Shown here piece after piece: positions 1 to 59,460 of a stretch of DNA of 64,000 nucleotides. The stretch lies in assembly GCA_964187785.1 (NCBI GenBank), contig OZ076409.1, forward strand, positions 39,000,001 through 39,064,000, read 5' to 3'. The notes under the pieces are model-generated. The model worked only from the letters and a program-made list of their open reading frames with translations, searched no databases and was not told the origin of the DNA. Source of the DNA: Amphiscolops sp. MND2022 (lineage: Eukaryota). The position numbers and the translations under genes are program-made. The first letter of the stretch is position 1. Each line of letters opens with the position of its first letter.

Positions 1-1441
1 CCGCAAGTTGGCCAAACCACATGGTACATCTACATATGCTAATTATGACTAATCATCACTTTACAATGTCGCAATTGCCTGCACACAGTGTCATGGTTTC
101 TATAGCAACTCAAATCATTCAATAATGTACTAATTTCAAGTCAAAACAGAGTAAGCTGCATCACAGGATGAGAAAACGATGTTTTTCCAACTAATTCTAG
201 CATTAAAATCAATACTTCAAAAGCAAAGATGGAAACGCGATGAATTCGTCAGAATATTTGCTGATTTTCAAGTCTAGTTTAGCTCTGGATGAAAATGCGA
301 TGAATGGTGGTCTTTTAGCTCGAAAATCAACACGATATGAACTGACGATGATAAAAGGATGAACTCGTCTTCAAAATGAATGATTTCCAGCACAATTTAA
401 ATCAACGATGGTAAAAGGATGAACTCTCCTCGAAAATAACTAATTTCCAGCACTAGTGAAATTGACGATGAATTCAGGATGAATTCAGCCAATAAAACAG
501 GTGAAACAGCTAATTCTGCAGTGAAGACAAATATACGATGACTTTAGGATGAATACATTCAAAAAAACAGCAAAATCTAATGAATGAAATTCCAACGATG
601 GGTTTAGGATGAACTCAACTGAAAATTCGGCTAGTTCTAACGTAAGTCGAACTAGCGATGAATTTACGATGAACTAGTGATGAGTTAATCTAATAAAACA
701 GATATCCAGCACTTCACTCTTTTTTAGGATGAATTAAGGATGTACTTTCTCATTTCTTGTAGTTTCTGTTCAGGACGATGAAATATAGATGTGTTATGCT
801 CTTTTTAAGAAATGAGAAGCACATTGAAGGTTAATAATCACAAAACGACGATGAGTATAGGATGGCTTTCATGCATTTTAAAGTCCCGTGAGATCCGCTG
901 ATGGATCACTAAATAAAATCAAATATATGTCCCAAATTTTGTTCACCCGCAATCTTGGCGATGTGATTGCGATGAACCTTGATAATATAGCACCGTAATT
1001 TCACTAATAGATCAAGTTGTAGGATCACTAAGTCCGCTGATGGATTAGTGATGAACTTTCCTGAAATTCGTCACGACTACAAGTCCTGAGGCGAGGGAGC
1101 TAGTAGAAGTTACAGATTCCATTATTTCTACATCTCTCGGTCCAGTCTGACCGGAAGACTTCTCTCCCTTATCGTGACAAACCAATATTGAATAAGATAG
1201 CACATTAAAAGCTATTGGCAAGATCATTTGTGCGGACACCGGAATTAGAGCGCTCAGTATTAAGTAAATATATATAGCTCAAACTCAGGGGGGATAGGGA
1301 TTAAAGTACAAGTAACGTAGGGTTGCTCACAACCATGGCTCTTATTATATGACATCATATTGCCCATATCTAAGTACATAAGACATAATATTTACATTAC
1401 AAATATTTAGTAGATTATATTTCCATCATGCTGGCATGACA
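1..1441 (-). repeat. 3' LTR of element A (far boundary uncertain: before base 1, or TGTCATG at 89)
   Basis: Matches 17051-18491 at offset 17050, with two mismatches seen by eye (563, 632). Identity stops exactly after ...GGCATGACA. Confidence 0.92.
167..974 (+). promoter_or_regulatory. Array of 13 GATG-N7-GATG motifs in the LTR (repeated at 17217-18024)
   Basis: Motif starts at 167, 228, 288, 347, 407, 467, 537, 597, 657, 728, 777, 850, 960. Spacing is mostly 60 or 70 bp. The regulatory function is inferred. Confidence 0.8.
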
Positions 1442-1455
1442 CTCCCCGGGGCGGG
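1442..1455 (-). promoter_or_regulatory. Polypurine-tract region of element A
   Basis: Minus strand reads CCCGCCCCGGGGAG directly followed by TGTCATG (start of the 3' LTR). The CCCGGGGAG core also occurs in the PPTs of elements C and D. Confidence 0.75.
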
Positions 1456-2566
1456 ATTTGGACTGAGAGTGCAGGGACCAAATGCGCAGAGGATGGTTGT
1501 CTCGGCGTTGGCTTCGACTGATCCTTCGTTTGGTTGGGGAGAAAATGGCCTTCGTTAGTTCTGAATTGGCATGTCCTTCGTTTGTTCTGTCCTGTGAGAG
1601 CTTCTCTGAGAAGAGGACCTTCGGTAATCGTCTTTTCTGGCATCATCCTGGGTGATTTCGGTTAAAATTTTCGACGCGGCAACTCTAATTCTTGGTCCAT
1701 CGAATGTCCGCTGACCTGCATTTTATTGGTTGTCATGCTTTTGACGGGAGTTTCGGCTGGTTATTTTCGGTAGAAGCTGATTTCTCGGAGAAAAGTTTCC
1801 CTCCAAAACGCCTACGCTGAGTAAACAATTCGATTAGCTTCACTGACAAATTGGCAGCGAGTCAGGGATGAATGAACGATGAATTGTTTGCTCAGCGAGA
1901 CACTGATGCTGTTTAGCGGAATGGCTGGCGCCGTTACTTGTTTACTCGCGATGAAAGGAGATGAATCGTTGCCATAGCAACTGTCAAAAGTTACTTCCGC
2001 TGCTCGACTTTTGAGTGAAAGAGAAAAGAGATGAATTCGTCGCCATAGCAACTGTTGCTCGATCTGATTGGCTGAGACTGAACTTATAACTGAAGGAAAA
2101 TACAACCGGTTGTCAGCAGCATTCTCATCCATAAATCATCCTCCATTCAAGTCGGTTTGAAAATCGCCACGATTTCCTTTGCGCGTTTCCGCTCAACTTC
2201 GTCGGTATAGATCTGAGACTGGCAGCTGTCAACAAATCAAATACTTGAAGTTTTTTGTCAAGTCCTGGGAGGGGACGATCCATTTTCAGAGAAGGCTTGA
2301 GTTGGTTGTACTGGGAAGAAAAGTGATGTCAGTATTTGAAATCGGAGAATTTTCATCGATTTTTCATCTTCTGAATTCAAGTATTTGATTAACATGGCAT
2401 TCAAGCTGCGCCGCTTTTTGAAATCTTCTATTGAATTTGTTCTTCTGTAATCATGGTTGATCAGGCCATTTAATTACTGATCAAATTCTCTGCTCCTGGA
2501 TTCTTCGATTTCTTTCCTTCTTTCACCGTCTTCCATTCTTTTCAGATTGTTTTGCAATTTTTCGCG

Positions 2567-5500
2567 ATGTCGGATATCAACTCCATCTATTCGTTACCGG
2601 AGACCGAGGCCACAGAAAGTAAGTGCACTATTTTTTCTCTTCTTCACAAACGGGCCGGGGAATAATTAGGAATTGAAGGCGTGTCTTGGTTTTAGCGGAC
2701 TCCGTTCACTCTGTCGGCATAATTTCCGAACTGACTACTTTGCAGACAGTTCCGCCTCAAGATGCTCCGATCCCTGCAGCATCTCACGCACCTCAGTATC
2801 AACCTGAGCAGCAAACTGAACAGGCCCCTAACGTCCCGTATCTTCCGCAGTGTAAGTACTATCCTTCCATTCTTCAGTTCAGTCTTCGAATCCCTCATAT
2901 CTCATCCTTACTCTGTCCAGTAGCTGACTCCTTTTCGTATGGTGTTTCAGACCACTACCCCTGGTATGCCTCCCTAGGCAGCATCACCTTCGGGTGGTAT
3001 GACCGCCACATGCGGGACATGCTGCGGGATAGCATCCAGCAGTACAGTGAGTTTGTCAATTTCCTTTTCACTTCTCTAGGCTATCGTCCGAACACTCCGA
3101 TGTGATTCCGATGTAAACATCTCATCTGCATGTAGTGTCCTTTGCGGTCGATTACCCATGTAATTCACCTTCGAGATGAATTTAGGATGTGTCATGAACA
3201 TTCACAGCTCTTCATGACTGACTCGCTGTAAATCCCATTTTTGAAGATGAGTTTTGGATGTATTCTTCTCCGGTTTTCTTTCTTCGCGCGGCGTACGCGC
3301 TCTTTCTTCTCTTATCGTCGTCGTCCAGTAACTGTTTCTTCTTTCAGGCCCCACACCGATCCACGCACCAAGGCCTCGTCCCATCAGCTATTCCGTAGGA
3401 GTAGGGACGAGTGATTTCGCCGCAACTAGTGCTGATGCTAGCACTCAAGGAGGGCCTCCTCAACTTGACTTGTCCTCGTTCCTTCAGGACTTGTCATTCG
3501 GGAGTGTAAGTTCTCCTGTCAGGCAGGCGCCAGTGTCGGTACTGTCGCCAGTGCTGAGGGGTTCTTTCGCCGCTAGTAGTCCTCCTCCTGCTCGTATCAC
3601 TCTCGACGCTGCTGTGAATGCTGTTGTCGATTGCGTGGATGCAGTCATCGATGCCGTTGTCGATACCTCTGATCGAGCAGTCCAGGCCGTTGTGGAAGTC
3701 AGTGAGTCCTCCACCTTCCATGATCCTCTTGTTGAGGAACCTGTCATCGTTGCCTCTTCTTCTGTTCCTGCCTTTTCAGTCAGCGGCACTGATACACTTG
3801 GTGATGCTTCCGTGAGTACTGCCGGCGGTGCTGAGACCCTACTTGTTGAAGTCCCTGGTGACTTCTCGTCCGACAGCCTTCTGCCTGCTGAACCTGACCG
3901 AGAATCTGCTTCTCCCAGTGCTGATCTCATGTCGACCGTGGCTTCTCCCATGGGACCCAGTCTACTGGATAGTGATGACGAACCAATCGCGTCCCGTCTG
4001 CCAGGTTAACTAAACAGCTTTAAACTGGTGAAGTATCTGATCAGTAGATTTTTCATTCATTTCCTTCTTCGCTTTTGCTTTCACTAGCATTTTTCACATT
4101 TTTCTTCTTTTCTATCCATTTTTCATCGTTCTTCTGTTTTCACTATATGGTTTTCTGCAGTTTTCCATTTTCCATCACATTCTCATCGTCAAAAGTCGTT
4201 GAACAATAGTTTTCGCTCTCTAGTCCTTTTTAGAAATTTCATCTCTTTTACATCTTTAAAATTTTCTCTTTTCGGTTTTCGCTATTTGTCGGTGTTTTCT
4301 TTTCAGTTTTCATCTCTTTTTCATCGTTAAGTTGTTTTCGCTCTAAAATATCTCAATTTTTGGTTCAAAGTCGTTCTATTTATCTCTTTTCCATCGTTCA
4401 AGTTTTTCATTCTTTAAGGTTTCCATTTTTCATTCTGGTGGTGTGCAAAATGCATCTCTTTTTCATCTTTTCGTTTTCTTCGTTTTTCGCTTATATTTCC
4501 TGATGAAAATATTATTTTACATCATTTTTTCATCACTCCGGGTGACTTTTGGAAGTTTGCGGTGGTTTTTTCATTTTTCAGTTTTTAAAGATTATTTTAA
4601 GATGATCTTGGAATTTTGTGGGAACGTGGTCGTTTTTAGTGGATGTGCTATGTGTTGGCATGTGATTATTTCTGTTTGTAGGGCGAAAAGTGATCAAGTC
4701 ATGGTGGTTTTCTCATGAATACTGTGGGCTTGCACTGGGCTATGCACGAAGTCATCAATCGCGGCTATCATTCGTTCGATGTTTACTGTGCAAGCGTGAT
4801 ATCAATGTTGGCAGCCGTGGTATCACTACTTTCATGGAGCATTGTCGTGGGCTCCGTCACCATCGTTTGGACTGTCTGATTCGTTTGTTTCGGGATTTAC
4901 CGTTGCGGCGACGCGACGGGTCATTCATGAGTAATGAAGAGAGTGTGGAGTGTAGGAGCAGCCTGGGCGGTGCAATGGTGCCGTTCATTGAGACGTGCCC
5001 CTCCTTTAGTGTACTGGAGGTGTTTGAGTTGGAAGCAGCTGGACGACCTGTGTGGGGGGACGAGGAGGAAGAGGATCTATTGTGTGAAAAGACGGTGCAT
5101 CTGTTCGTGTGCCTGGTTATTGACTCAATCTATCGTGGGTGTCAGTTCGCCAGCGTAACGAGTTTGTGGGAGGTGATGGTTGCGTCAGAGCCGCAACATG
5201 CCTCTCTTTTCGGTGTTACTTGCGAAGTGAATGACGTGATGGTAATTCGTATTTCTTTTTGTTTTTTGTTTCATGAAGGTTCGTGTAGATGGAAAAAAAA
5301 TACATTTAGTGGGTGGTTTTCCATAGGTAGTTTTGAAGCTTGGGTAGGGGGGATTTTCAACTATTAATTGTGTCGGGTTATTTTTAAGCGGATAGTGAAT
5401 TAATGTATAGTAAAGTTGATGTTTGTTTTTAGAGTGTGGTTCTACTGAGTTTGTGGCCGTACGCGATGAAGAGGCTAATCACTCTGTGGTCTAACTGTGG

Positions 5501-7347
5501 GTTCACTAGCTTTCATGTGGCTGTTGGGCAGGGGCGCGTGACTGGCACGGTCACAATGTGTTCTCTAGAAGGGATCAGTCAGTACTGTGTCTTCAGTTTT
5601 TGTCTGTCTCAGGATTGGGAAAAACGAGTTGTCACGTGGATGATTAACATGTGGTGTTGTTTGCTTGGAGAACCTGTTCCACTTGGACTGTGTTGCGATG
5701 CGTTGCCACAGCTGGGTGGACTGTTCCAAGCCGCCACTGGCGTTGGGTCACTGGAGTTGAAGACGCTGTCATTGTGTGAGATCAGTCGGACAATTGTGGA
5801 CGTGGGAGGGCGGGCGCTCGGCGGGACTGATATTCATGTGGTGCTGAATCATCTGCAGAAAAGACTGAAAGGATATGTCAGGGATCCTCTGTTGTTGAGC
5901 TGCCCTCATCTGTTGCAGGTCGGTGTAGTCTTCCGCTTTTATTTGAGTGTTACTATGAGTTGTACTCTTTGTCTGTTTCTGTTGTTTGTATATTGGTAGT
6001 AGTTTGTATTGTAATATTTTGTTTTATCTATGTGGAGCTTGTTATGTTTTGTTTAGGCGATTTTATCCGGGGAAGTCTACGTGTGGACTCTTGCTGATGT
6101 GTGCGATGAATTACGTGCCAATTGGGCAGAAGTGCTGTGTCTAGTTCGATTCGCTTCGGGAGACGGGCCAGTAGATGCGTTGGATCTTACTTTGAGGGTG
6201 GAGTTCGGGATCCCAATCAGGCTCCGGGCACTTAGTATGGTCTATCGTGCTTGTTAGTATGTTGTATACTTACCGGGTGGGAAGTTTCTGTAGTTGGCCG
6301 TTTTTACGTATTCGAGTGTTTAATCAATTCGCATTTTTCGGGAAGGGAACGGGGGGGGGGTTAGTCCGATTATTTACTGTGTATAGAATTGTTGTGTTTT
6401 TCATTTCAGTAGTGACGTCGTACGAAAAGAGTTTCGGGTCTTCATCATTGCGGAGTTGCTACTGGGCGATCGAGAGTGCATTCTTTGTGAAACGCCTGCT
6501 GACTCTACTGGTTGACGAAGAGAGCCTGCCCACTGATCTGGATATCCGTGGGTGGTTGTTTGTGGATGTAGACAGTTATGTTGTGTCAGCGACTAAGTTA
6601 CAAGCCCTTATCGCGAGTTTCAGCTCGGATGAGAATTTGACGGAAGATGTGGCTGTGTATGAAGAGGATGTGTCCCGAGTGCCTAATTTCTTATTGTCTA
6701 TCGTCAGGAACGTATTATTGCTACCAGGGATTCGTGACGATCTTGCTTTCGTGCGAAGTGTCTTTAGTTCACCCAGACTGGTTTGTGTGGCGGAAACTGA
6801 TCTTGTGGCGGAAATTCGCAATTTTACTGGTTTACTTGTGGAAATGGGGCGGATCAGTTTAGTCGAACAGGATCGAATGGAGCTCGGATTTCTGGAATTT
6901 ATAAGGGCTTTTCGGTGCGAGCCTAGGCCAGCTGGGGCGACTGCCGAGTATTCAGCCGTTGATCTGTTGCGTTGCTGTTCCAGTCGCGGGTCACAGAGTC
7001 TGTTACAACTTGTCTTTTGCCTGGGAGGGGTGGTGCAGAGCACTTGCAATACCATATGCGAAGGGATCGGGCACCTGCCGAGCGATGTCATGAGCTGTGT
7101 GTGTGCAGTAATCTCTGGTTATTTGTCTGCTAATCATGTGCGAAGTTACGGTAGTGTCAGTGGGCCACTGATGGAAGAAGTGATGGAGTCGCACAGAAGG
7201 CTCGTCGATCTATCAGAGATTACAGAGGGCATGTTGTGGGACGACGTCGGTATCGTGGCTGGGGAAGATTATCGTCTCCAGTTATATGCTAGTCTTGGTT
7301 ACGATGTGACCGGGGAGCGGGCTGCCAGTCCCGAGATTGGAAACTGA
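2567..7347 (+). CDS. Spliced antisense accessory gene of element A, about 1046 aa: low-complexity N-terminus, C2H2 (BED/TTF-like) zinc finger, degenerate hAT-transposase-like region
   Basis: Exons 2567-2618, 2696-2851, 2951-3046, 3348-4004, 4682-5241, 5433-5918, 6057-6252, 6410-7347. All 7 introns are GT..AG with matching phases (1,1,1,1,0,0,1). Total 3141 nt with no internal stop. C-x2-C-x16-H-x5-H at 4780-4860 (CLLCKRDINVGSRGITTFMEHCRGLRH). The exon 4 donor (CAG|GTTAAC) is the weakest link; if it is unused there are two genes. Confidence 0.8.
4173..4534 (-). promoter_or_regulatory. CATC-N7-CATC motif array inside intron 4 of the antisense gene
   Basis: Motifs at 4173, 4240, 4311, 4381 (TATC variant), 4453, 4520, about 70 bp apart. 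Confidence 0.75.
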
Positions 7348-7447
7348 CTTATTAACTGTTTATGTTGTTCATTGTTTTGCTATATAATTTGTTGTATTTA
7401 CATATTAGTGTAGTTATTCATATGTTGGGAGACCCATGAAAAAGGTC

Positions 7448-7453
7448 AATAAA
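7448..7453 (+). terminator. Candidate polyadenylation signal of the antisense gene
   Basis: AATAAA 100 nt downstream of the TGA at 7345-7347. Confidence 0.55.
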
Positions 7454-7677
7454 TGGAAAGCACAGTAATGACCATAGTGCGAATGATACAAATCCAGATG
7501 CTACGGCGGAAAGATCGGTAGTAGTGTGTTTACAACATTAGTTATTTTGGTGCCCAACAGCTGTTTTTCTTTTGAGTTGTTAGTGATAGTTACAGAGGAT
7601 ATTAAGTACGTGTAAATCAACAAGTTCGTCCAACAGTTCACTTGAAGCATTGTCTTCGGTATTTTTGTATCATAGAT

Positions 7678-9943
7678 CATCGGTCGCGCATCGCTTTTAT
7701 GGTGTTCATCGTTATTACATCTCGTGGTAGTGTAAGTAACTCGTCAGCGTTTGATCTTTGATTTTTCATCTCATTTTCATCACGTTTTCCTCGGTCGACC
7801 AAGCGACGTCGTGAAAACTGTTTTTGTCATCGTTTTTACATCTTTCGGTGCGTCAGAAACATTGCATGTTGTTACATGTGGTTTTTCTACGTATTTCATC
7901 ATTTTTTCATCTTGCGTTTGATTTGAGCACTTTCGTGCGTTATTTGCTATAGTTCATCGTTTTTGCATCGCAAGTTTGTCTTGTTCAGTTTCTGCTCATT
8001 TTGCTGTATAGTTCATCTTCTTTTCATCGTGCGTTTGAAATGTACGGATTTTTGCGTGTTTTCGATGTTATTTGGCTATAACGTAAGCGGGGGTTGCATT
8101 TTTCGTGTCCGGAGGAAATTTTTATTAATATTGTGGTGTTTCGGATTGTTTTCTTCATGTATTTTAGCGTTATACGGTTATAACCATTTGTCGTGTTTTT
8201 GAATTTGCATGAATTTTATGGTACATGTGTTTTAATCATCGTCGTCATGTTTCTAATTTGTCAACTTCGGAACGTCATTGCATGTATTTTTAGTTCGAAT
8301 TCTGGTGACCGCCGCTTGCGTGGCAGTCGAAAATAAGTTCACTCAGCAGTGGTACTGATAGCCTGTAGGCGTGCAAGGTACTAGTGGCTTCAGTCCAGAG
8401 CTGGGTGAGTGGAGCTGCTCCGCTCCTTTCAGATAAATGGAATCTCGTAGTTTCGGGCTATATATAGTCTATATGTCATTTTTTCGGTCGGTTGTTTGCC
8501 ATTATTCGTCGAAATGGGTTTGTCCATTTGACGGTCAGTCCGATCAATCAATGTGATTGACATCTACGGTTATGCATGTGTCCAGTTTTAGACTATCTGT
8601 TTCTTGTATTTGCATGTATGGATGGTTACATGATGTGCTCTTTTAAATGGGTTTCCCCATTATTGACATGTCGTTATATGTTCGGTGGTAGTTTCATGTT
8701 TTCTAATTTTATTTTCGTTCATTTGGACAGGGCTTTGTCGTCACAAAGCCCCTACAAAACTAACTGAGAATCCACTAGCCGCTGGATAACCAACGCAGCA
8801 AGCTTCATCCGAATATGGTTGTGAGCTCCCCGCCTCAACTAACCAGCACTCTTTTCAGAGAAATGCCAGCCAGCACGAAGGAATGATTTTAGTTTTTCGG
8901 TAGGGGTGTTTTGTATTTTATGAGCTGATGTTTACTGGGGGGTGCTCACTCCTTTATTAGTTTTGTAGGTGTTTCGTCAGTTCTTATATTTTGCATGTAA
9001 GTTAGTAGACTTCATGTATTTTCGATTGTTTGTTTCATTTTTATTCGTCTAGGTTCGGATGGTTTTGGTGTGAATTGCATATATTATCTCATTCATTTTT
9101 GAACGGTACATGTATATTTCCGTGCGTTGCTCATTTGTATTGCATGTAGTTTGGAATTGTTAATTGCTTTCGTGACGTCATTGATTTGGCAGGTCTTTGA
9201 ACTTTACATGTATTGATCATTTCATTTTTGTGTCGCATAATTTCGTTGCATGATTCGAAATAAGGTCGGTTGTTTTTTATCGTTTCGTGGAGTTACATGT
9301 TGTTTGCGAATTAGCTGATTTATTGTGATGTTATGTTGATGGTGTTTCCCATCACAAAGAGGTGTTGGTAAGTCATTTAATATTTTCGAATTTCCATTTA
9401 GACTAAATTCATCGTTTTGACATCCTCCAGCGAAGCTAGAGTATTGTGTCAGGTTAACGATAAATTCGGTCGCGATTTGATGGTAGTGTCCATCACAAAT
9501 TCATCTCGTTAATTGATTTCATGTAATTTATGAATAATTGGATCGAGTTCATCGCTATTTCATCCTCTGGCCGAGCTAGAGTCTTATGATAGCATGAACG
9601 TGAGTGCGTTCGCATTCTGATGGTATTTCCCATCTCAAATGCATCGTTAGTAAATATTGCATGTTGATTGGTCTATTTTTTGACTGAGTTCATCACTTTT
9701 TCATCTCTCGTGTGTCTGAGTTAAATTTTCGTGTGGTTTCATCCTTTTTTCATCTCAAATTTTGTGTGTTGTTTTTTCTGGTTTTTTGATCGTTTTTCAT
9801 CCGTTTTACATCTCGTTTTGTTTGTATGCGGTTTTCATGTGATTTTTAGTAACTTTTCATCCATTTTACATCTTCATGTACTTTTTAAGTTAAAATTGCA
9901 TGTAATTCGTTCGTTTTTGTGATTTGTTCATCCGTAACACATC
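7678..9943 (-). promoter_or_regulatory. Non-coding spacer with two CATC-N7-CATC arrays (7678-8028 and 9410-9943)
   Basis: Motifs at 7678, 7707, 7767, 7828, 7897, 7955, 8014 and 9410, 9491, 9550, 9631, 9691, 9740, 9798, 9858, 9929. Confidence 0.75.
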
Positions 9944-9970
9944 TCAGATTTAAAGTGAAACTTTTCTTGG

Positions 9971-12900
9971 CTAAATCGTTACGTCTATTTTGTTGGTCTT
10001 TCTCAGTGCGTTTCTAGCTGAAGTAATCTCATGAATGAGGAAGTCTGGATACGTTTTCGGTGTAGGGTTCTCACGTAACCTGTACCTACTTTGATTTGAT
10101 CTAGACGGTCTAGAACTCATCCTTTCTTCATTTTCGTTTTGCGTGTTTGTCTGTTGTGACTGGTTTTCGTGTTGTTCGTCTCTCAGAGGTACTCTTATCC
10201 TACTTTCATCGCGGGGAGGCGGTAGAATAATTTCTTCTCGCGTTCCAAATCTAACTGTAGGTGGTCTAAAGTTGTTGTGATCAGTTTCTACTTGCTGATA
10301 GTCTATCCTCGTGGTTATTTCTGGTGGAATTACTTGTGGAGTGTGTTGTTCTTGTACCCGAGGAATTGTTTCTTCTGAAGGCTCTTTTTCGACCAAGTCT
10401 TGATCTAGATTGTCATTCTCATCCTGATCTACTTCGTCGGTCATCGGAATATTCGAGTCGAAAATGTCCGTGTCTTCAACCCTTTCGGTATCTGGGTAGA
10501 GATGTTTGGACATGTTGATGTCGTCAATCGGAAATTCCGGTTTGAACAATCTCAGTCGCATGCGATGTACGCACTGAGTTTGGTGTGTGCCTACTTTGCG
10601 GATGATGTAGTTGCTATCGGATAGCACTTTAATCACCTTGTACGGTCCTTTCCAATGGAAAGTTTTAAACTCTTCTTTGCTTCTCTGAGAGTCGTACTTA
10701 GGGTCTAGTAGGAACACAAAGTCATTCACCTTCAGTGGCTGTGCTCGTGCTTTTCTATCATAGTACGTTTTGTACTTGTGATAGGCGGAAATGATGTTGT
10801 CTAGATTGTCTCTGAAGATAAAATTCATTTTGTCTAGAATTTCGTTCACGTCTTTGCACTTTGTTTCAGCCGGTTTGTTTGCGTTTCGGAATTGCAGATC
10901 TAGTGAGTTGTATGGTGTTCTTCCGTGGAAAATTTCGGTTGGTGAGCATTTCAGTGAATCATGATACGTTGTGTTATGGGCCATGATTGCTATGTCGACA
11001 TAGCGGTCCCATTGTGGTCTGTCTGCGTTTACACTAATCTTAAGGATCTTTTTCAGTTTCGCGTGCGTTCTCTCCACCATGCCTATTGTCTGCGCGTGCT
11101 TTATCGTGGCATGGGAGATGTGAATATCAGCCGCTTTCGCGATTTCAGACAGAAGTTCAGCCGTGAACGCCGTGCCTTTGTCGGTCAGAATGTGTTTGGG
11201 CACATACGCGTGTTTTGTGAAGATCGACAGTAGTCCTCTGACTACGGAATGTGTGTCAGGTCTCTTCAGCGGAACGGCGAACAGGTAGCGCGAAAAAACG
11301 TCAACAGCCGTCAGAATGTGTGTAAAACCGTTCGATGCCGGGAGTGGACCAACGATGTCTATTTCCAGCAGGTCTTCTGGTCCGTCGCACGGGTCGTAGA
11401 TTTTTTGTAACGGTGGACGTAGTTGCGTTTCTTTTACACTTTTAGACTTCATGCAGTTTTCACATCCGTCAAGGACTTTTTGAACTTTATAGGCTAAGTT
11501 AGGAGAGTAATATCTTTTACGAAGTTCATACAACATTTTCTTTAAACCAGGGTGTCCTTGTACCGGGCTGTTATGTAGAGTCCTAATTATTTTCAAAATA
11601 CAGTCTTCAGGAACGACTAACTGCTTATGAGACTCTAGTCCCGTGTGGTCAAAAAACTGTCTGTACAAGACACCGTTTACAACTTGTAGGCGTTTTCGAT
11701 TTTTGTACAACTTTTGAAAAAACTGGTCTTGCATGTTAACTGGGTGTTGCAAAATTTCAGTACCTTCTAAAAATCTAATCATTTTTTGGATAACCCAGTT
11801 ATTTTTCTGGACCTGAATTAGATCGATCCCCTCGGCGGGGCTAACCTGACTCATTACCGGGTGTGATAATGATACTTTACGGATGAATTGCGAGAGTTGA
11901 ATCGGCTCGTCCACGTCTGTGAGGCGGTACGTCAGATGGTTGTCAGTCGCGAAGTCATCTGAGGCCGCAGTTCTCTCACAGTTGGTGAACTTCATCCCTT
12001 TCCCATCGTCATGAGCCACGTCAGTGCCAGTTGCCAATTTCATCTCTTTGACATCCTTCTGGCGTTTGCATCTGAGTGGTTCGCTCGCGGGGAAGTAATC
12101 AGGCTCGTCTTCCTCCTGTTTTGGTGTACGGGAGGCGATGTCGATCTCGATCCTGTGAATTGGAATAGTATCAGTCAATTTTAAATGTACACGGTCTTCA
12201 GGTCTAATCTCAAGCCGAGATAAGTAATCCGCTGCGGGATTTTCAACTCCTGGAACATGTGCTAATAGAAAATTGAACTGAAGGGTTTGATCGCAAAAGT
12301 TCCAAAGTGAAGGCGGGATATGCTTCGCCTGGAAAAATCTAGTCAAGGCCTTATTGTCAGTCATAACAATGATGGGTTTTTTCGCACCCCACAAAATGTG
12401 GCCAAATTCATCGAATGCAAAGTGCATAGCTAAAAACTCTTTGGCATACATTGTTAGAGACATCTGGCCGCCCTGAAATTTCTTAGAGCCAAATGCAACA
12501 GGGGCGTATGTATGTTTGACTGACGGGTCTGCATAATCCTCGATTAACAACACATAGCCTGCAGCGTGTTCGCTGGCGTCACACATGATTACCAGTTGTT
12601 TATCTGGTAATGGCAATTTCAGAGACACTTTTGTTGCTTTTAACAAACTTTCATTAATTTCAAAAATAGCATCTTTATGTTGTTGGTTCAGCTTGAAAGG
12701 GACGTCTTTCTTGATGAGTTCCTGTAAACAACAAGTTTTATCAGCTAGACGGGGAATGTAAGACCTGTAAAAGTTCACAAAACCAAGATAACGTTGCAAC
12801 GCTTTCACTGAATTGGGGGGTTTCAACTTCGTTAAATAGTCTGTTACGCGTTTTTCAATGGGAGCAATACCAGTGCTAGAAATGGTTTTTCCCAAGTACT

Positions 12901-15064
12901 CAATTTGTTTTTGTCCAAATTCACATTTACTCATGCTAAGTTTAAGACCAGCTTTTTGCAATTGTTGAAAAACAAGTTCAAGGTTGGTAATCAATTATTC
13001 GGGTGAGTGTGCTGCAATTCCAATATCGTCAACGTATTGGGCACAGCGGTCCGCTTTGACCAGGGGGTCCAAATACTCACGGATTACTCCTGTAAATGCT
13101 GACAAAGAACGATTAAGACCTTGTGCTAGACGTAAAAATGCAAAAGTTCTAGATCCAAAATTAAACGATAACAGTTGGACAGATTGCTCATCGGCCATTG
13201 GAATGCAATGGTAGGCCTGGGAACAATCAAGTTTGCAGAAGTACTTTTTCCCGGCCATGTGTTGGGCAGCGTCAGCAATTGTTGTTACGGGATGATTGTG
13301 CTCACCGTAATCGTTTTTGATCAGGTGGTTTATTCTTCTCAAGTCAACTAAAATCCTCAATTTACCATTAGGTTTACGCTGAGCAAATATCGGGGAAGAG
13401 TATTTGCTGTGAGGCAAAGTAGTTATAATCCCGTACTCTTGCATTAGGGCTAACTCCACGAGCAAATCGTCCTTCAAATTTGTCGGAGTCGGGAGACTTT
13501 GTGAATAAACAGGTTCTTCATGTTGAGGTGTTAACTTAACTTTAAAATCAGTGTTCATGCCAATATCAAAACGGTGTCTAGCAAAAATGGAGTTGTACTT
13601 TACCAGCAACTCCTCTACCTGTAACCGTTGAGACGGAGTAAGAAGCGAGTCGTCCCAGTTGAAGTTCTTCAGGAAGTTCATCCGTTGTTCATCGGATTGG
13701 GACGGGTCAAGCTTCTCGAGCTCTCGCAGTGCCAGAATCTCATCATAAATCCGTCGCTCAATTGCGTTGAGTTTGTCTGGCTCACTGCACGTCTCGGGAG
13801 TTGGGTACCACTTGGTTGACTTCATTTCAGGGTTCACAAACAGTTGGTTGATCACTGCTTCGGCTTCATCTGGATACTTGGTGATCAAGTTCAAGTGTTC
13901 CACTGGCATGGGCGTGATGTTTGCCGCCTGGTGTGGTGTCGGGATGCGAAAGTGTGCCAGAGTGGTGTTGGCTTCAAGTGTGTACGTGTGGTTGTTTGGG
14001 TTGGTGACCTGGATTGTCGTCTTGCCCTCGTCTAGGTCAACCAAAGCTGGAGAAACAAGCAAACACGTCTTTCGCATGAATCCAGGTGAGCCCTCAACTG
14101 TACCAGTTGTAAGTGAGATGTCCGCGTCACTGTGGACCTGTATCATCACTTGATGGAGAGGAGGGATCACTGTTCTAGTACTGGAACACAAATCAATTAA
14201 ACCAGTTTTGAATCTGTTGTTCTTTTGCTGTCTAACTTGCATGGACATCATGTGATTAGGGAAGTGGACAAGGTGGTTTTTGATGTCTAAGTTGACTGAG
14301 TACTTTTCAAAAAAGGACATTCCAATTAAAATTGTTCCCATTGTTGGAAGGATTAGGAACGTTTCTTCGAATACTTTTCCAGCAACGTAAAATCTAAGTA
14401 AGACTTGCTTACGCACTGGGACTAAGTTCCCGTTTGCTATTTGAATTTTGAAATTCGGAGGGGGGAATTCTTGAAGGATGGCTTCTGGATGAGCCGTTGT
14501 TATTTTTCGCAGTTCGGCTTCAGACATTGCACTTTGTATTGCGCCTGTGTCTAAAAGTGCGCTGTTTTCGTATTTGTAAACTTGAAGAGGGACGTACAGC
14601 ATTTTATCTTTCTTGTTTAAATGTAAAGTGGGACTGAGAACGTGAATTTCTGTTTTAATTGCATGTTTTTTAGTTTTTGAAACGTTAATACTACTCTGTT
14701 TTGCATGTTTTTTAATACTAAGCCGTTTGTCGATTGTTGAGTGTGAAGTCGAGTCGTCGTCTAGATGGTGGGTTTCCATCTCTTTGGCATCTTCCACCTG
14801 CCTCATGGTGTTTGGTTGCCAGTTCATCGTTTGTTCATCGTTGATTTCAGCGAGTGGAGAAAAACGGCTGCCGTTGAGTTGACTTGCATTTCTCATCGCT
14901 TTTTCATCGTTGGAAAGTCTTCGCTGATAGACGTCGTCAGCTTTTGGTCGTTTGTCCAGTGAAGGCTGCCATTTCTTCATTGGACGGTCGTGTGTAGTCG
15001 GTTGAGTCGAAAGTCGTTGGTCGCGCGTTGTGTTTCTAGCGGGCGGAAATCGTGGCGGAATCAA
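9971..15064 (-). pseudogene. pol: Pol of element A (protease, RT, RNase H, integrase with GPY/F) with one in-frame TAA at 12995-12997
   Basis: Motifs: LLDTGA (PR); YVDD (RT); CDAS..E..TDN..ADYLSR (RH); H-x6-H..CENC, IDIVG, TDKG, GMVER (IN); WKGPYKV. ORFs 12995-15064 and 9971-12994 are in the same frame, separated only by the stop. Confidence 0.93.
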
Positions 15065-16566
15065 AAACCCTGATTTATGTCTTCATCAGAGTAGGTTTCT
15101 TGGTCTTCTTCTTCGGTGACTGCTTGCATAGGGTTCATCGGCTTTTGTTGTCGTTTTAAGTCTTGTCTTCTAGTTCTGTTGTCATCTTGTGAATTCGTTG
15201 CGTATGGAATCTTTCCATATGCAGAACTGCTTTCTTTAGGGACACGTCGTCTGCAATCCCTTGCTGAGTGGCCTGTGTAACCGCAAATCTGGCAGACCAA
15301 TTTTGGATTGTATTTCGGCTTATCTGGATCGGCTGCTTTCTTCATTGGGATTGCATCCTCCTTCTTTATGCCGTTCGCTTCGTCTCGTTGTCGGGCGCGA
15401 CATTCCGTTTTGCGGTGTCCTGTCTTTCCGCAGTAGAAACATTGTCCTTCAAATCGTTTTCGTTCTGTCGGTTGTGCGGTCGTCGTTGTTGTTGTAGGCT
15501 TCGTCGTTGTAATCGTAGGTGGTGCTGAGGAGGTGACCGCGTTGAATGGTTGGATTGCCGTAGGTGGCGCGACGTACTGCTGGTACTGGTATTTTCGCAT
15601 TAGGTAGGTTTTGATTTCCTCTGGGGAGCTCTCTTCTTTGTTTGCCATGGTGAGCTCTTGTTGAATCTCGACTGGCAGTTTTCCAAACAGGAACATTTTG
15701 ATTATTCTGTCGGCCTCATTGCCGAAGGCTTGTTTGGCAGTCTTCTTGAGATTTTTGAGGAAATCGCCGAATGTTTCTGTTGTGGGATCATAGCGTGCTT
15801 GATCCCATTTGTAACGGGCCACTTCCTTTAGATCCTCTTTTGCAAATTCTTTTCTGAAGAGGTCGAGTACGTCCTTTAGTGTTGTCATCGGCGTTATCTG
15901 GATGGATTGTCAGTATTCTATTGCGTCATCTCTCAAAAGGCTTTGAAAGAAGTGTAGTTTGTTCTCCTCGGTGATTTTGTTGGCAAGCGGGCTAAGGTGG
16001 TTGAGGAGAAGGTGTTCAAATTCGACGAATTTGTCTTTTTGGCCTCTGAAATTTGGCACGTGTGTCTGCAGAAGCTTCGTGTTGGTGGTTGTGTTTTTGA
16101 TCCGTTGGGGGATCGTCTCGATTGCATTGAGCAGTCGTTCCTCATTGCTTCTGGGGGTTGATTCTCCTTCGTCTGAATCGTCTTCTTGGTAACTTCTGAA
16201 GTTGGTGAAGCTGGTGGTCGGGCGGTTGGAGCGGGTTTCTGTAGCTCCTGTCACCATGTCGAACCCAACCGTGTGGGTCGGCTTTGAAGGACCTTTCGAG
16301 GTTGACTGTCGGTTTTCGGTGTCTGTCTTACTTATGACAGCCATCATTAAGTCCTTCAGTTGACTGAACTCATTCTGTAGTTCGTTTATCTTTCTCTCAT
16401 AACTCTCTTTTATTTCAGATAACTGAGACGAGATATCAGAAACCTCGTTGCTATCAGAGTCATTGGCAGAAGACTGAGCCATGTCTGGGTCCGTTTGAAT
16501 GGGTGTTTCTGATGAGGAACTAATAACTCTTCCGCTTCTGAGTTCGGTGCCTAGATCTGGGTTCAT
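15061..16566 (-). pseudogene. gag: Gag of element A with two CCHC zinc knuckles and one in-frame TGA at 15910-15912
   Basis: CFYCGKTGHRKTEC and CQICGYTGHSARDC. ORFs 15910-16566 and 15061-15888 are in frame (AIEY*QSIQITPMTT). Confidence 0.9.
15064..15070 (-). other. Putative -1 ribosomal frameshift slippery site G GGT TTT at the gag/pol junction
   Basis: Gag ends CAG GGT TTT TGA. The -1 frame GGG TTT TTG ATT CCG is the open pol frame. Fits X XXY YYZ. Confidence 0.75.
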
Positions 16567-17050
16567 AGAGGTGAGAGAAAAGGAATTATGAGTGAAGACT
16601 GGATTCTGGATGATTTTCGATGTATTTTACTATTTTGTGCCGTTATTCGAACTCAAATTCACTATTTCTGAACTTGAGATGTAAATGCGATGAGTTTTAC
16701 AGTAAGACAAGGATACTAGTAAAGAATGAGAATAGTTAACGAGGATTAAGTAGAGTTCATCCAAATTTCATCGAATAGATATCAATCAAGAAATTACTCA
16801 GAGTTGTGAAGGTAGCGTTATTTACGATGAATAAGAGATATGTTTTCTAGTTCAAATCTGTCGTAATTCGTCCAACTGGACAGTAGCTAATCGCAATTTC
16901 GGTCTGTGTAAACTCTAATGGCGGTCCAAAATACAGCAGTTCACGTGTCTTTTCGGGCTGGTAAGACGCTAAATCTCTTACCAGCCGACTCTTATTGGCT
17001 ATTGCCAGTTGGTGCTAATTGGTAAGTCACGTGACCGGTGTTGTGAACTG

Positions 17051-18491
17051 CCGCAAGTTGGCCAAACCACATGGTACATCTACATATGCTAATTATGACT
17101 AATCATCACTTTACAATGTCGCAATTGCCTGCACACAGTGTCATGGTTTCTATAGCAACTCAAATCATTCAATAATGTACTAATTTCAAGTCAAAACAGA
17201 GTAAGCTGCATCACAGGATGAGAAAACGATGTTTTTCCAACTAATTCTAGCATTAAAATCAATACTTCAAAAGCAAAGATGGAAACGCGATGAATTCGTC
17301 AGAATATTTGCTGATTTTCAAGTCTAGTTTAGCTCTGGATGAAAATGCGATGAATGGTGGTCTTTTAGCTCGAAAATCAACACGATATGAACTGACGATG
17401 ATAAAAGGATGAACTCGTCTTCAAAATGAATGATTTCCAGCACAATTTAAATCAACGATGGTAAAAGGATGAACTCTCCTCGAAAATAACTAATTTCCAG
17501 CACTAGTGAAATTGACGATGAATTCAGGATGAATTCAGCCAATAAAACAGGTGAAACAGCTAATTCTGCAGTGAAGACAAATATACGATGACTTTAGGAT
17601 GAATACATTCAATAAAACAGCAAAATCTAATGAATGAAATTCCAACGATGGGTTTAGGATGAACTCAACTGAAAATTCGGCAAGTTCTAACGTAAGTCGA
17701 ACTAGCGATGAATTTACGATGAACTAGTGATGAGTTAATCTAATAAAACAGATATCCAGCACTTCACTCTTTTTTAGGATGAATTAAGGATGTACTTTCT
17801 CATTTCTTGTAGTTTCTGTTCAGGACGATGAAATATAGATGTGTTATGCTCTTTTTAAGAAATGAGAAGCACATTGAAGGTTAATAATCACAAAACGACG
17901 ATGAGTATAGGATGGCTTTCATGCATTTTAAAGTCCCGTGAGATCCGCTGATGGATCACTAAATAAAATCAAATATATGTCCCAAATTTTGTTCACCCGC
18001 AATCTTGGCGATGTGATTGCGATGAACCTTGATAATATAGCACCGTAATTTCACTAATAGATCAAGTTGTAGGATCACTAAGTCCGCTGATGGATTAGTG
18101 ATGAACTTTCCTGAAATTCGTCACGACTACAAGTCCTGAGGCGAGGGAGCTAGTAGAAGTTACAGATTCCATTATTTCTACATCTCTCGGTCCAGTCTGA
18201 CCGGAAGACTTCTCTCCCTTATCGTGACAAACCAATATTGAATAAGATAGCACATTAAAAGCTATTGGCAAGATCATTTGTGCGGACACCGGAATTAGAG
18301 CGCTCAGTATTAAGTAAATATATATAGCTCAAACTCAGGGGGGATAGGGATTAAAGTACAAGTAACGTAGGGTTGCTCACAACCATGGCTCTTATTATAT
18401 GACATCATATTGCCCATATCTAAGTACATAAGACATAATATTTACATTACAAATATTTAGTAGATTATATTTCCATCATGCTGGCATGACA
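17051..18491 (-). repeat. 5' LTR of element A (inner boundary uncertain, at or before 17051, or 17139)
   Basis: Matches 1-1441 and ends ...CATGACA followed by the unrelated flank GGGAC. No canonical tRNA PBS was recognised next to it. Confidence 0.92.
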
Positions 18492-18919
18492 GGGACAATC
18501 TAATTCGAACGATTAACAGGTAACGACCAAACTCCAGTGTTAGAGGTTGGAGTCTAACTCTAACTTTGAGAATAAAGAACATGATCAGCGAACGACTCTA
18601 TTTAATGGAGACCATGCGGTAAAATGAAACTCAGCTTAGCTGAAGCTTAATGTGGTTTGTTTGACAACAACTATTTCTTTTTACTGCTGCTAAACTGAAC
18701 TTTTTGTTTTACGAGCTTTGCGCTCTGCCTCATCCGGTTTGTTATTTTCCGCCCATATTCCATATGGGAAAGGAAAATATTCAAATCAAACGTTTTTTTT
18801 TTACAAAATTTGCCAAGCACCAAATTTATATTTAACTTTAAGGGTGTTACCCATAGAATTCAAATCATATAAATTTAGCTTCGTACGATTTGTATTTGTG
18901 GAGATTTCTGGACTTTTTT

Positions 18920-21100
18920 AGTTGACCCCAATGACCCCCGAATGACCCAATAAAGACTCCAAAATAGGAAAATTTCCAATTTTTTTAAGTTTAAAGGCAG
19001 TTTTTGTCATTTTTTTTTTATAGATATCGTATATTAGAATGTTGAAAACGTTTAACAAGGCACAAACTCGTTGCCCAATAGTCTTTTATGAAGAGATAAT
19101 TGCTGTTTTCCAGAAGGAAAAGATCTCAAATTGACACTGGAAATGACAAAAATCCAAACATTTCCCAATTTTCAAAGTTTTTTTTTGCAGTTTTTGTCAA
19201 ATTTTAGATAGCCTTCGTGGATTAGAATGTAAAACACGCTCACATGGCACTACTTCGTTGTCCAGTAGGCCTTTCCGGAGAGATAATTGCTGTTTTCCAA
19301 ACGAAAAAGTCTCAAATTGACACCGAAAAAGACAAAACTCACAAAAGTTTTCAGAGTTTTTGTTTTTTTATTAAAGTTTTGCGGATTGGAATATTTGGAT
19401 GTTTTCACGATTTTGCGGATTGGAATATTTTAAGGGGTCAACAAGGAGAGAGTGGGTTGTCGAGTAGGCTTTCTCGAAGAGTTTATTGCAGTTTTCTACG
19501 TGAAATTGTCTCAAATTGAACGCGAAAACGACAAAAAACCCAAAACTTTCCATTATTCCAAGCTTTTATGCATTTTTTGTTAAAGCTTTGACGGTTTTCG
19601 TGGATTGGAAACTTTAAAAGTGTCAACAAGGAGAGAGTCGGTTGTCGGGTAGTCTTTATTGAAGAAATAATTGCAATGTTCTGAATGAAATGTCTGAAAT
19701 TGGCATCGGAAATGACAAAAAGCCCAACTTTTTCCAATTTTCAAGGGTTTCATGCCTTTTTTCCGAATTTTCGACCGACTTTGTGGATTGGAACGTTGAA
19801 AAGGGTCAACAAGGAGAGAATGTGTTGTCTAGTATGTTTTTCCGAAAAGTTTAGGGCAGTTTGCTATATGAAAAACTCTCAAATTGACACCGAAAACAAC
19901 AAAAAACCCAAAAGTTCCAATTTTCAATTTTTTTATTGCATTTTTTGTAATGGTCTCGACGGGTTTTTGGATAGGAATGACCTAAAGGGTCAACAAGGAA
20001 AAAATTGGTTGTCCAGTAGGCTTTCCCGAAGAGTTTGTTGCAGTTTTCTCCGTGAGAATTTCCCAAAATGACACCGAAAACGACAAAAAACCCTAACTTT
20101 TTCCATTTTTCAAAGATTTTATTCAATTTTTTTTAAAGTTTCTTCGGTTTTCGTGACTAGAAATTTTCAAAGGACCAACAAAGAGAGCGTGGGTTGTCGA
20201 AGAGTCTTTAATGAAGAGATAATTGCAATGTTCTGAATGAAATGTCTGAAATTGGCACCGGAAATGACAAAAAACCCAAAATTTTCCAACTTCCAAGGAT
20301 TTTATGCATTTTTTCCAAATATACGACAGACTTCGTCAATTGAAACGTTGAAAAGGGTCAACAAGCAAAAAATGTGTTGTCGAGTATGATTTACTGAGGA
20401 GCTTACTGCAGTTTTTAAGTGAAAATTTTTCAACTTTACACCGATAATAAAAAACCTCAAAGTTTTCCACTTTTCTATGTTTTAATGCATTTTTGTTAAC
20501 ATTTCGACAGACATCGTGGAATTGGAACATTTTGAAGGGTCAACAAGGAGAAGATGGGTTGTCGAGTTGTCTTTAATGAAGAGATATTTGCAATGTTCTG
20601 ATAGAAAATGTCTCAAACTGACACCGTAAGTAACAAAAGTCACAAAATTTTTCAATTTTACCGCTTTTATGAATTTTTCCTAAACTTTCGACAAACTTCG
20701 TCAATTGAAACGTTAAAACGAATAAACAAGGAAAAAATTTGTTGTCCAATTCGCTTAGAAAAAGTAAAAATGCAGTTTTTGAAATGAAAACTGTCCGGAA
20801 ATGACATCGAAATACAAAAATTCGAATGTTTTACGATTTTCATTTGTTCTATTATTGTCAAAATATCGATAGACTTCGCGGACTAAAATGTTAAAACGCT
20901 AAAACATGGGGAAATATGTTGTTTTGAGGAGCATCGTTACGAGATAAGTTCAATTTGTTAAAGATAATTGCATCAAATTGACCATGAAAAGTCGGAAAAA
21001 TTGAAGTTTTTATCGTTTTTGATGCAATTTCTGTACAATTTCCGATAGATTTCGTTCTAAACTCCAATACAATATCTCAAAAACATTAAAACGAGGTATG
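18920..21100. repeat. Diverged tandem array, unit about 184 bp, about 11 copies
   Basis: The AAATTGACACCGAAAA-like anchor recurs near 19128, 19314, 19513, 19697, 19881, 20066, 20249, 20432, 20615, 20798, 20975. GGTCAACAAGGA and GAAGAGATAATTGC blocks also recur. Confidence 0.85.
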
Positions 21101-58391: not shown

Positions 58392-59039
58392 CTGAATAGA
58401 AAAACAAAAGCTGAGTGCAAAGAAACTTTATATATCCATATCCAATGAAACGTCCTATGTGAAAGTTTTTTCAAAACCAATTGCTATTTTAAAAAATAGT
58501 CCCAATATGAAACGCTCTGCGGAAAAACTTACAAACTAACCAACACATACACCCCACCCCAAACGCGAAACAGAAAAAAAGCTTTTTCTTTTTGGAAAAG
58601 TTCAAAATTAAAAGTGAAATTCCTCATTTAGATTTTTAAAAAGTTGGATGAACTTTAGGTTTCTTAAAACTTTCAAACCAAGCAAAGATCGAATACTCTA
58701 CCAGAACGTGACTTTTCAGTGGTTTTTTAAGTCTCGAATTATGACAAAGGGGGATATTGAAAACAAGTCATGCCTTTTATTTATTTATTTTTATGTCATT
58801 TATTTGAAACACACTTTAACAGAAGCATAGTACTTTATAATGATGATTTTATGTCACTAATTCTTTTCCTTGAAAACCACCAAAAGTTCCAAGGTTGACG
58901 ACGGTGCTGTACCTTTATTTTCCGTCCATATTTCAAATGTGAAAAGAAAACAGTTTAATAGGCCGCGTTTCTTATTTCAAAAATGAAATTAATTTTTTTC
59001 GATATGTGTTTGTAAAGTTTCGCACTTTTTTGGTATGAT

Positions 59040-59460
59040 CGAAATGACCCCAGAATGACATAAAAATGACCCCAAAGTGACAAAAATTGCAGAATTTGGG
59101 ACCTTTAACGTTTTTAGGCACCTTTTGTCAAAATTTTGACAGACTTTGTTGATTAGAATGTTTGACACTTTCGACCATGAAACAAATCTGTACAGTACGT
59201 TTTTTTGAAGAGATGAATGCAATTATTTGAGAGAAAAATGCCTCAAATTGACACCGAAAACAACAAAATTTCCAAAAAATTCCAATTTCCAAGATTTCTA
59301 TGCAACTTTTGTCAAATTTTCGAGACGAAAATTTTTGAATAATAATTTTTGGCGAGATAAAAAATTTCGTGAAAGAAATATGCCACAAAAGACTTCAAGG
59401 ATTAGAACTTCAAAACCGTTTAAGAGCTGGTGACTTCGTTGTTCAGTAGGCTTTAAGAAG
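59040..59460. repeat. Second copy of the ~184-bp-unit repeat family, interrupted by element D
   Basis: Shares the TGACCCC leader repeats, GATTAGAATG, GAAGAGAT and CTCAAATTGACACCGAAAACAACAAAA with 18920-21100. Confidence 0.7.

Follow-up and report, generated by a model that had tools for sequence, protein, structure and literature searches.

Introduction

Several plant retrotransposons of the Ty3/Gypsy type with long terminal repeats (LTRs), including Retand (TRP28/Transposase_28), Grande (gene23) and RIRE2, carry an additional open reading frame (ORF) that runs antisense and lies between pol and the 3′LTR. These ORFs are reported from most copies of their families and proposed to encode nuclear regulators, and their origin and function are stated to be unknown (PMC7264820, PMC11963269); a 2020 review describes them as lacking similarity to other transposable elements (TEs) (PMC7264820). 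Captured domains such as PMD are already known from Gypsy elements (PMC5418596, PMC9289625, PMC13547354). Among DNA transposons, VANC binds arrays of motifs within the element that encodes it and diverges more quickly than the transposase does (PMC5735166). BED fingers of hAT transposases bind short motifs scattered near the element ends (PMC10368747), and transposases can activate their own copies, with domesticated ones losing DDE (10.64898/2026.08.24.746577). Here, we describe an antisense gene in a Ty3/Gypsy element of Amphiscolops sp. MND2022, located in 64,000 nucleotides of contig OZ076409.1 (assembly GCA_964187785.1, positions 39,000,001 to 39,064,000; referred to as the window). Profile alignments show homology of this gene to hAT transposases along about 630 columns and support its derivation from a whole hAT transposase.

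Homology to hAT transposases

The 8.5 kb that separate pol from the 3′LTR contain the gene, which is antisense to pol. Its model, predicted from the nucleotide sequence, comprises eight exons with 1,056 codons on the + strand (2567-7347), i.e. four upstream exons followed by exons A to D (Table 1). A preliminary description of the window had interpreted 4682..7347 as a catalytically degenerate hAT transposase with a retained zinc finger. This locus is real, but it covers only the 3′ part of the gene, and 4682 is not the gene start. All peptides quoted there were found on the + strand of the window (LGLCCDAL in exon B, VWTLADV... in exon C, LLQLVFCL...CEG in exon D, and LRALSMVYRA/LVTSYEKSFGS bridging the predicted C/D junction, with donor 6253 and acceptor 6409), and the finger follows the pattern given for it (C33-x2-C36-x16-H53-x5-H59 of exon A). 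Related genes were detected in three Gypsy clades of the same genome, namely W (the clade of the window), X and Y.

Direct database matches were scarce. Pfam zf-BED aligned to the finger in 10 of 15 copies with E-values of 0.0016-0.0025, below its cut-off. No hAT core or Dimer_Tnp_hAT family was detected in Pfam scans of the element exons, and PDB sequence searches with the exon alignments, and with the donor hAT family introduced below, returned nothing significant; the libraries proposed earlier as a check did not reveal the hAT relationship. Searches of the ESM Atlas gave only unrelated matches (0.85 or below). No longer relative of exon A emerged from word-seeded searches, and a related finger used as query recovered only five multi-finger proteins. 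In the latter (P0080 and P0091-P0094), the same type of finger is repeated several times in tandem, and Pfam shows no transposase match.

The search with the finger uncovered a host transposase family that is nearly invisible to Pfam (one of 24 members matched). This donor-type family is hAT: it aligned to canonical host hATs at 96.6%, its CxxH and W are invariant and its D, D and E near-invariant, and 14-bp terminal inverted repeats (TIRs) with 8-bp duplications were present at 4 of the 18 host loci checked. Its motifs (FDE, MDGPNVN, CxxH, RW, and ExGFS) occur in the host and in metagenomes. We also noted host hAT families (L109, L110, L111 and L112) with 14-bp TIRs, 8-bp duplications and transposases without Pfam match, relatives of which are common in metagenome contigs.

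For the donor profile, 80 metagenome loci were collected through the core motifs; 70 frames passed the length filter and 55 were kept after removal of near-duplicates. This profile reached E < 1 for 44 of 93 natural exons vs none of the 93 reversed ones. On the window itself, exon A matched with E 0.001 and exon D with E 0.2, the latter in the same register as the strong matches of clade Y (six exon D frames, E 1e-7 to 2e-4). In profile-profile alignments with hhalign, where E-values apply to one pair, the pooled clades matched the hAT profile at 99.7% (E 2e-24, 634 columns). Since the donor family was first reached through the finger, the match of exon A is not independent; that of exons B to D is, and without exon A the match was still 98.1% (E 9e-14, 411 columns). 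Exon D alone, as a three-clade profile, reached 96.9% locally (E 1e-10) and 98.7% globally, and clade W alone 70% locally (E 4e-5) and 88% globally. Reversed controls gave E 0.095 or worse. With a shallow profile built from host hATs only, the signal was clear just for the pooled set and for clade Y, and it vanished once exon A was left out; the depth added by the metagenome loci was needed. Neither canonical Ac-type transposases nor a second host hAT group matched the antisense gene beyond the finger.

An AlphaFold model of exon B that relied solely on sequences of the element is poor (predicted local distance difference test, pLDDT, 51) but displays the strand order of RNase H with a helix, three strands and a helix. 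Compared to 48,161 chains, it ranked Hermes first (Z 6.0, root-mean-square deviation 3.9, 97 aligned residues, Hermes 152-261). This segment includes the first two catalytic Asp (positions 180 and 248). Foldseek returned no hit with E < 0.001 for exon B, and its top rows were largely RNase H-like folds. For the exon D model (pLDDT 58), no fold matched (Foldseek E 0.8 and Z 5.7 at best, with helical hairpins). The first rank of Hermes for exon B is a near tie that we regard as only supportive. The hAT descent proposed in the preliminary description finds support in the profile-profile match to intact hAT transposases and, weakly, in the fold search.

Several observations count against this picture. 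On their own, exons B and C match the hAT profile weakly (E 0.03 and E 0.1-0.2, respectively), and neither clade W nor clade X by itself could be aligned globally if a single row supplied the match columns. The tool advises caution below a Z-score of 8, and the value of 6.0 differs by no more than 1 from those of pelota and glucokinase, for a model of pLDDT 51. Residue posteriors at catalytic sites were mostly 0.02-0.3, making single-residue pairings tentative; an invariant acidic triad is nevertheless absent. Finally, the splicing that joins the exons is a prediction from the DNA. We consider it highly probable that the gene is real and of hAT origin.

Loss of catalytic residues and lack of flanking TIRs

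The zinc ligands C, C, H and H are aligned to those of the donor family and invariant in 22 of 22 rows. By comparison, the catalytic residues are not retained. Exon B of the window contains neither D nor E in residues 1-46, which include the strand of the first catalytic Asp (D1). The Asp of LGLCCDAL, previously assigned to the second catalytic position (D2), indeed aligns to D2, but D, K, S or E occupy this column among the alleles of clade W. In the Glu column, we found T/R/S/P/N in clade W, L in clade Y, and E in three of six rows of clade X. In clades W and X, neither exon B nor exon C contained a CxxH or RW motif. The three-clade alignment of exon B misplaced clade Y, which weakens the pooled mapping of D1. 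A loss of catalysis, as proposed from the first inspection, is supported by the lack of any acidic residue in the first 46 positions of exon B and of any invariant D, CxxH, RW or E column.

The flanks of the gene contained 38 inverted pairs of 9-12 nt, none of them with an 8-bp duplication, and the donor-type TIR was absent. An intact DDE triad with flanking TIRs, which would have contradicted a degenerate transposase, was thus not seen at the locus. Judged by its DDE, CxxH, RW and TIR sequences, the antisense gene is not an active hAT member.

Gene structure and conservation

A profile search of 1.84 billion proteins gave 87 matches, nearly all of them exon-sized fragments. One distant match (P0066) led to clade X when used as query, and the other distant match to more clade W alleles; clade Y was reached through the finger search. 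Identity to the RNase H-integrase region of the window is about 50-53% for clade X and 37-41% for clade Y. The antisense proteins align pairwise among W, X and Y at 99.5%, 96.0% and 95.6% over 450-550 columns, with an identity between clades of roughly 14-26%. The A/B, B/C and C/D introns have phases 0, 0 and 1 in each clade; clade Y has one additional intron within exon C. The mutual alignment of the proteins and the three introns at matching places and phases point to one origin, and a single ancient capture is the simplest reading. The carriage of a transposase-derived gene by a class I element, suggested earlier for the window, holds in three Gypsy clades. In one clade-Y copy (L105:1-3852), an in-frame tandem duplication of the N-terminus and finger results in two fingers within a frame of 1,284 aa.

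In a sample of 20 copies drawn from across the window's family, the seven splice sites of exons A to D were canonical in 19, 18, 19, 19, 20, 20 and 19 copies, and intron lengths differed despite the kept splice sites. The donor at 4005, GT in all of 30 copies, joins the four upstream exons in frame with exon A. These exons add an acidic, Ser- and Pro-rich N-terminus; exon 4 contributes 29 D+E vs 8 K+R in 218 aa and, judging from this composition, is probably disordered and possibly an activation region. In clade Y, an N-terminal region of the acidic type and the finger share one frame. The model is least secure at the start codon and exon 1. A candidate exon with an ATG further upstream of exon A (~4503-4541) was rejected, as its phase is incompatible with exon A and its donor is variable. 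Exon B starts at 5433; positions 5433-5612, which include the strand of the first catalytic Asp, are conserved coding sequence in most copies.

Of 127 matches scored in a genome search with exon D, 47 were full-length at 97-100% and free of stops; further groups lay at ~81-85% and 57-65%. With exon A, 49 of 150 matches were at least 97% identical, one of these with a stop. Over exons A to D, the ratio of nonsynonymous to synonymous substitution rates (dN/dS) relative to the window was 0.11, 0.26, 0.09, 0.13 and 0.18 for five of eight copies; in the other three, synonymous sites were saturated and the proportion of nonsynonymous differences (pN) was 0.36-0.37. The antisense reading frame is under purifying selection. 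The window copy itself has no stop in the antisense frame and one in-frame stop each in gag and pol. Older copies often display frameshifts or stops in the antisense gene, as expected after insertion.

The gene is carried by the element. Among 50 loci picked by the antisense gene and not by pol, pol was found on the opposite strand in 48 (20 of 20, 18 of 20, and 10 of 10 in the three clades); the two exceptions (L050 and L051) have no pol within 10 kb. In all ten neighbourhoods examined, the LTR pairs were 99.3-100% identical, and the elements measured 14.9-19.3 kb.

Exchange of old alleles between element backbones

Within clade W, copies whose integrase (INT) region is 95-99% identical to that of the window carry A-D alleles of just 52-71% identity. 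In L056, for instance, the upstream exons and INT are 99% identical to the window but the A-D module only 55-58%. L003 and L004 display the reverse, with a module 89-91% like that of the window and more distant upstream exons (72%). Synonymous sites of the gene are saturated in clade W while the synonymous divergence (dS) of pol is only 0.06-0.16. We compared trees of 30 rows (L051 was left out). None of 19 supported splits conflicted between exon A and exon D, while each of these trees conflicted with the integrase tree in 16 of 19-20 supported splits. Tree lengths were 3.9 and 5.0 for exons A and D, respectively, and 0.8 for integrase, i.e. the module tree is 5-6 times longer. According to these comparisons, the A-D alleles predate the backbones by far and are exchanged among them, with template switching as the probable route. 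The old alleles on near-identical backbones constitute a natural panel for finding the protein's conflict partner.

Sequence motifs and proposed function

The non-coding parts of the element are rich in short motifs. In clade W, TTCATC occurs 18 times in the LTR (shuffled mean 2.7) and seven times in intron 4 (1.6). The spacer at 7348-9970 contains 20 copies of TTCATC (mean 3.3, maximum 10) and 17 of CATGTA (mean 2.0, maximum 6; 100 shuffles). TTCATC was not enriched in exons A to D, in host DNA or in the second Gypsy element of the window. Three of four clade X LTRs have ATGTGG instead. Two further patterns were noted: CATGTA, unlike TTCATC, is enriched across clades, in the spacers of W and X (window 7348-9970; L041 and L047) and in the LTRs of Y; and the motifs differ in orientation, with GATGA on the + strand of the LTR (1-1000, 19 per kb) and TCATC on the + strand of the internal non-coding parts (4000-10000).

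On balance, the product probably binds DNA and serves the element that encodes it as an activator or anti-silencing factor. An ancestral Gypsy element would have captured one hAT gene once. Introns would have arisen after the capture, given that most transposase frames are long and uninterrupted, and would have persisted because splicing does not remove antisense introns from the genomic RNA. A promoter within the 3′LTR or close to it may drive antisense transcription. The finger would bind the short motifs repeated across the non-coding DNA of the element itself, in the way that BED domains bind subterminal repeats, with the dead transposase core serving as a scaffold; the acidic N-terminus would recruit activators or oppose host silencing, and the element would stay transcribed. 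Conflict with host silencing or between elements may maintain the allele diversity. The full proposal, that an animal Gypsy lineage took a whole hAT transposase as a sequence-specific anti-silencing or activating protein and carries it as a swappable cassette of ancient alleles, is plausible, if somewhat short of probable.

Other observations weigh against the proposed function. The likely recognition helix of the finger is almost identical across W alleles while the rest diverges, so that DNA specificity does not explain the allele diversity. The five clade Y LTRs are mostly without a clear motif above the null, a 60-bp tandem duplication supplies part of the TTCATC count in the W LTR, and pol, with 11 copies of TTCATC vs 4.4, equals the shuffle maximum. 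CpG is not depleted in the window (observed/expected 0.78-0.99), which makes a DNA demethylation of the VANC type unlikely; the target would rather be chromatin or small-RNA silencing.

Alternatively, contact with proteins may be central: the product could counter a host silencing protein as decoy or inhibitor, with DNA binding only for placement and the old alleles arising from an arms race at the protein surface. This would accommodate the conserved finger helix next to differences of 27-60% in amino acids outside the finger, as well as the length of the module tree (5-6 times that of integrase) and its conflict in 16 of 19 supported splits, and accessory TE proteins have been predicted to have many host contacts (PMC13547354). 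We regard it as unlikely, given that dN/dS is low throughout, with no excess of replacements in what is a whole-region and not a site-wise measure. A guide or tether for integration, which binds the ends of the element cDNA or chromatin and steers integrase like accessory targeting domains, is suggested by the binding of element ends by transposase scaffolds (PMC10368747), by the nuclear integration role proposed for plant antisense ORFs (PMC7264820), and by the density of TTCATC, highest in the LTR. The motifs are present in the intron and spacer too, however, the product would come from a separate, predicted antisense transcript and not from the Gag-Pol polyprotein, and alleles are swapped freely against near-identical integrases, all of which renders this reading quite improbable.

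The coexistence of many old alleles on one backbone might instead reflect a self-repressor or an exclusion factor between elements that limits copy number or blocks elements with other alleles. Such coexistence is seen in self/non-self systems, and domesticated hAT proteins include repressors. Set against this are the acidic N-terminus and the youth and abundance of the families (LTR pairs 99.3-100%; thousands of first-look candidates), and we likewise give such a factor little credence. Finally, the gene might be a functionless, decayed hAT insertion, or only its finger might be transposase-derived. The missing Pfam core, Dimer_Tnp_hAT and PDB sequence matches and an exon D model without fold would fit. 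This explanation is largely refuted and appears very improbable in view of purifying selection with saturated synonymous sites, conserved splice sites, the lack of TIRs or an 8-bp duplication, and the match of exon D alone to the hAT profile at 96.9%. We thus favor the DNA-binding activator or anti-silencing factor.

The host element and other features of the window

The element displays all features of Ty3/Gypsy membership, i.e. LTRs with TG..CA ends, a primer-binding site, a polypurine tract, a short target duplication, and protease, reverse transcriptase, RNase H and integrase in this order (Table 1). Its LTRs (2,235 bp) differ by three mismatches and are flanked by a 5-bp duplication (GGGAC). 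In position, orientation, conservation and linkage to pol, the gene conforms to the type of an additional ORF that runs antisense between pol and the 3′LTR. The gag frame begins about 310 bases within the 5′LTR (16257-16566) and runs across the LTR end and the primer-binding site, so that the LTR itself is partly coding.

Table 1 Features of the Ty3/Gypsy element and its antisense gene in window coordinates
Feature	Position	Strand	Remarks
Predicted exon 1 with start codon	2567..2618	+	Donor GT in 27/30 copies; ATG in 14/30, probe failed in 16
Predicted exon 2	2696..2851	+	AG in 25/30, GT in 27/30
Predicted exon 3	2921..3046	+	AG in 17/30 (11 no hit), GT in 27/30
Predicted exon 4, acidic, Ser/Pro/Ala/Val-rich	3348..4004	+	AG in 27/30, GT in 30/30
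Exon A: BED-like zinc finger and helical region that follows the finger in hAT transposases	4682..5241	+	
Zinc finger C-x2-C-x16-H-x5-H	4780..4860	+	Ligands invariant, 22/22 rows, three clades
Exon B: half of putative RNase H-like core (three strands, helix)	5433..5918	+	First Asp absent, second variable, CxxH lost
Exon C: helix in the position of the RW motif	6057..6252	+	Not significant by itself, E 0.1-0.2
Exon D: hAT helical insertion domain and C-terminal region	6410..7347	+	Catalytic Glu not kept; stop at 7345-7347
Ty3/Gypsy element	first 18.5 kb of window	-	19.3 kb in all, young
3′LTR	1..1441	-	Extends 794 bases past the left edge of the window; LTR 2,235 bp
Polypurine tract	1442..1456	-	Sequence
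Non-coding spacer, TTCATC- and CATGTA-rich	7348..9970		
pol (protease, reverse transcriptase, RNase H, integrase)	9971..15082	-	One in-frame stop at 12995-12997 in window copy
gag with zinc knuckles	15061..16566	-	Start inside 5′LTR; one in-frame stop at 15910-15912 in window copy
5′LTR	16257..18491	-	18 TTCATC/GATGAA copies; primer-binding site immediately to the left

Elsewhere in the window, a second, unrelated Gypsy element of 18.8 kb was detected at 26199-45045 (LTRs of 730 bp, 98.4%). Its pol is followed by two long frames in sense orientation (31977-29092, 961 aa; 29091-28054, 345 aa), its integrase frame has a long tail, and the element does not match the antisense gene. A diverged tandem repeat with a unit of ~185 bp extends over 18900-20900, with a further copy 38 kb off at 59000-59320. 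Two inverted copies (80%) of a repeat of ~3.7-4.4 kb, located at 47585-52479 and 59461-64000, have terminal direct repeats and hairpin-like ends but no long frame.

Comparison with known systems

Among the systems compared, hAT transposases such as Hermes share with the antisense protein the order of finger, helical region, putative RNase H-like core, insertion and C-terminal region, a collinear profile match, and the zinc ligands. Unlike them, the antisense gene lacks a conserved DDE, CxxH and RW, has introns and a low-complexity N-terminus of 330 aa, and, unlike hAT elements, has no TIRs and is mobilised as part of an LTR element. The antisense ORFs of plant Gypsy elements agree with it in strand and location. 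They are unrelated in sequence (no Pfam scan of the antisense gene matched PF04195), and the window gene stands apart through its source in a whole hAT transposase, its introns and a host that appears to be an animal. A literature search that excluded Repbase, most subscription journals and supplements brought up no LTR element described as carrying an antisense gene of hAT origin. The window gene is an antisense accessory gene of a known type whose cross-class origin can be named. Where the extra antisense genes of LTR retrotransposons come from and what they do are open questions (PMC7264820, PMC11963269); the former can be answered here, for a gene that was retained through a deep divergence of pol.

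Host-domesticated transposases, such as the hAT-derived ZBED proteins and DAYSLEEPER and, for MuDR, MUG/FAR1, are likewise DNA-binding factors that lost catalysis. The owner here is a different one, namely another transposable element, multi-copy and still moving, and transposase domestication as known from hosts would thus also have been carried out by a transposon across the class I/II divide.

VANC of VANDAL elements and TnpA of Spm, both TE-encoded anti-silencing factors, are, like the antisense gene, accessory genes with introns that evolve faster than the core enzyme; TnpA is also transposase-derived. Short motifs pile up in the non-coding DNA of their elements, a pattern that is clear in clade W, fair in three of four clade X LTRs and weak in five clade Y LTRs. 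By sequence, the antisense gene is not a VANC family member, as no exon scanned matched the Pfam families of VANC/TnpA (PMD, DUF1985, DUF287, and the HTH of TnpA). Moreover, VANC and TnpA belong to plant DNA transposons and act via DNA demethylation, whereas the window has no CpG depletion, and TnpA keeps only the DNA-binding part of its own element's transposase, whereas the window gene represents a transposase of another class in its full length. Should the protein oppose silencing, it would act as a sequence-specific counter-defence encoded by a TE, in a genome that shows little evidence of CpG methylation, and might partly account for the high numbers and young age of these elements of 15-19 kb. 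It would then represent a retrotransposon counterpart of plant VANC/TnpA, in which one mobile class has domesticated another.

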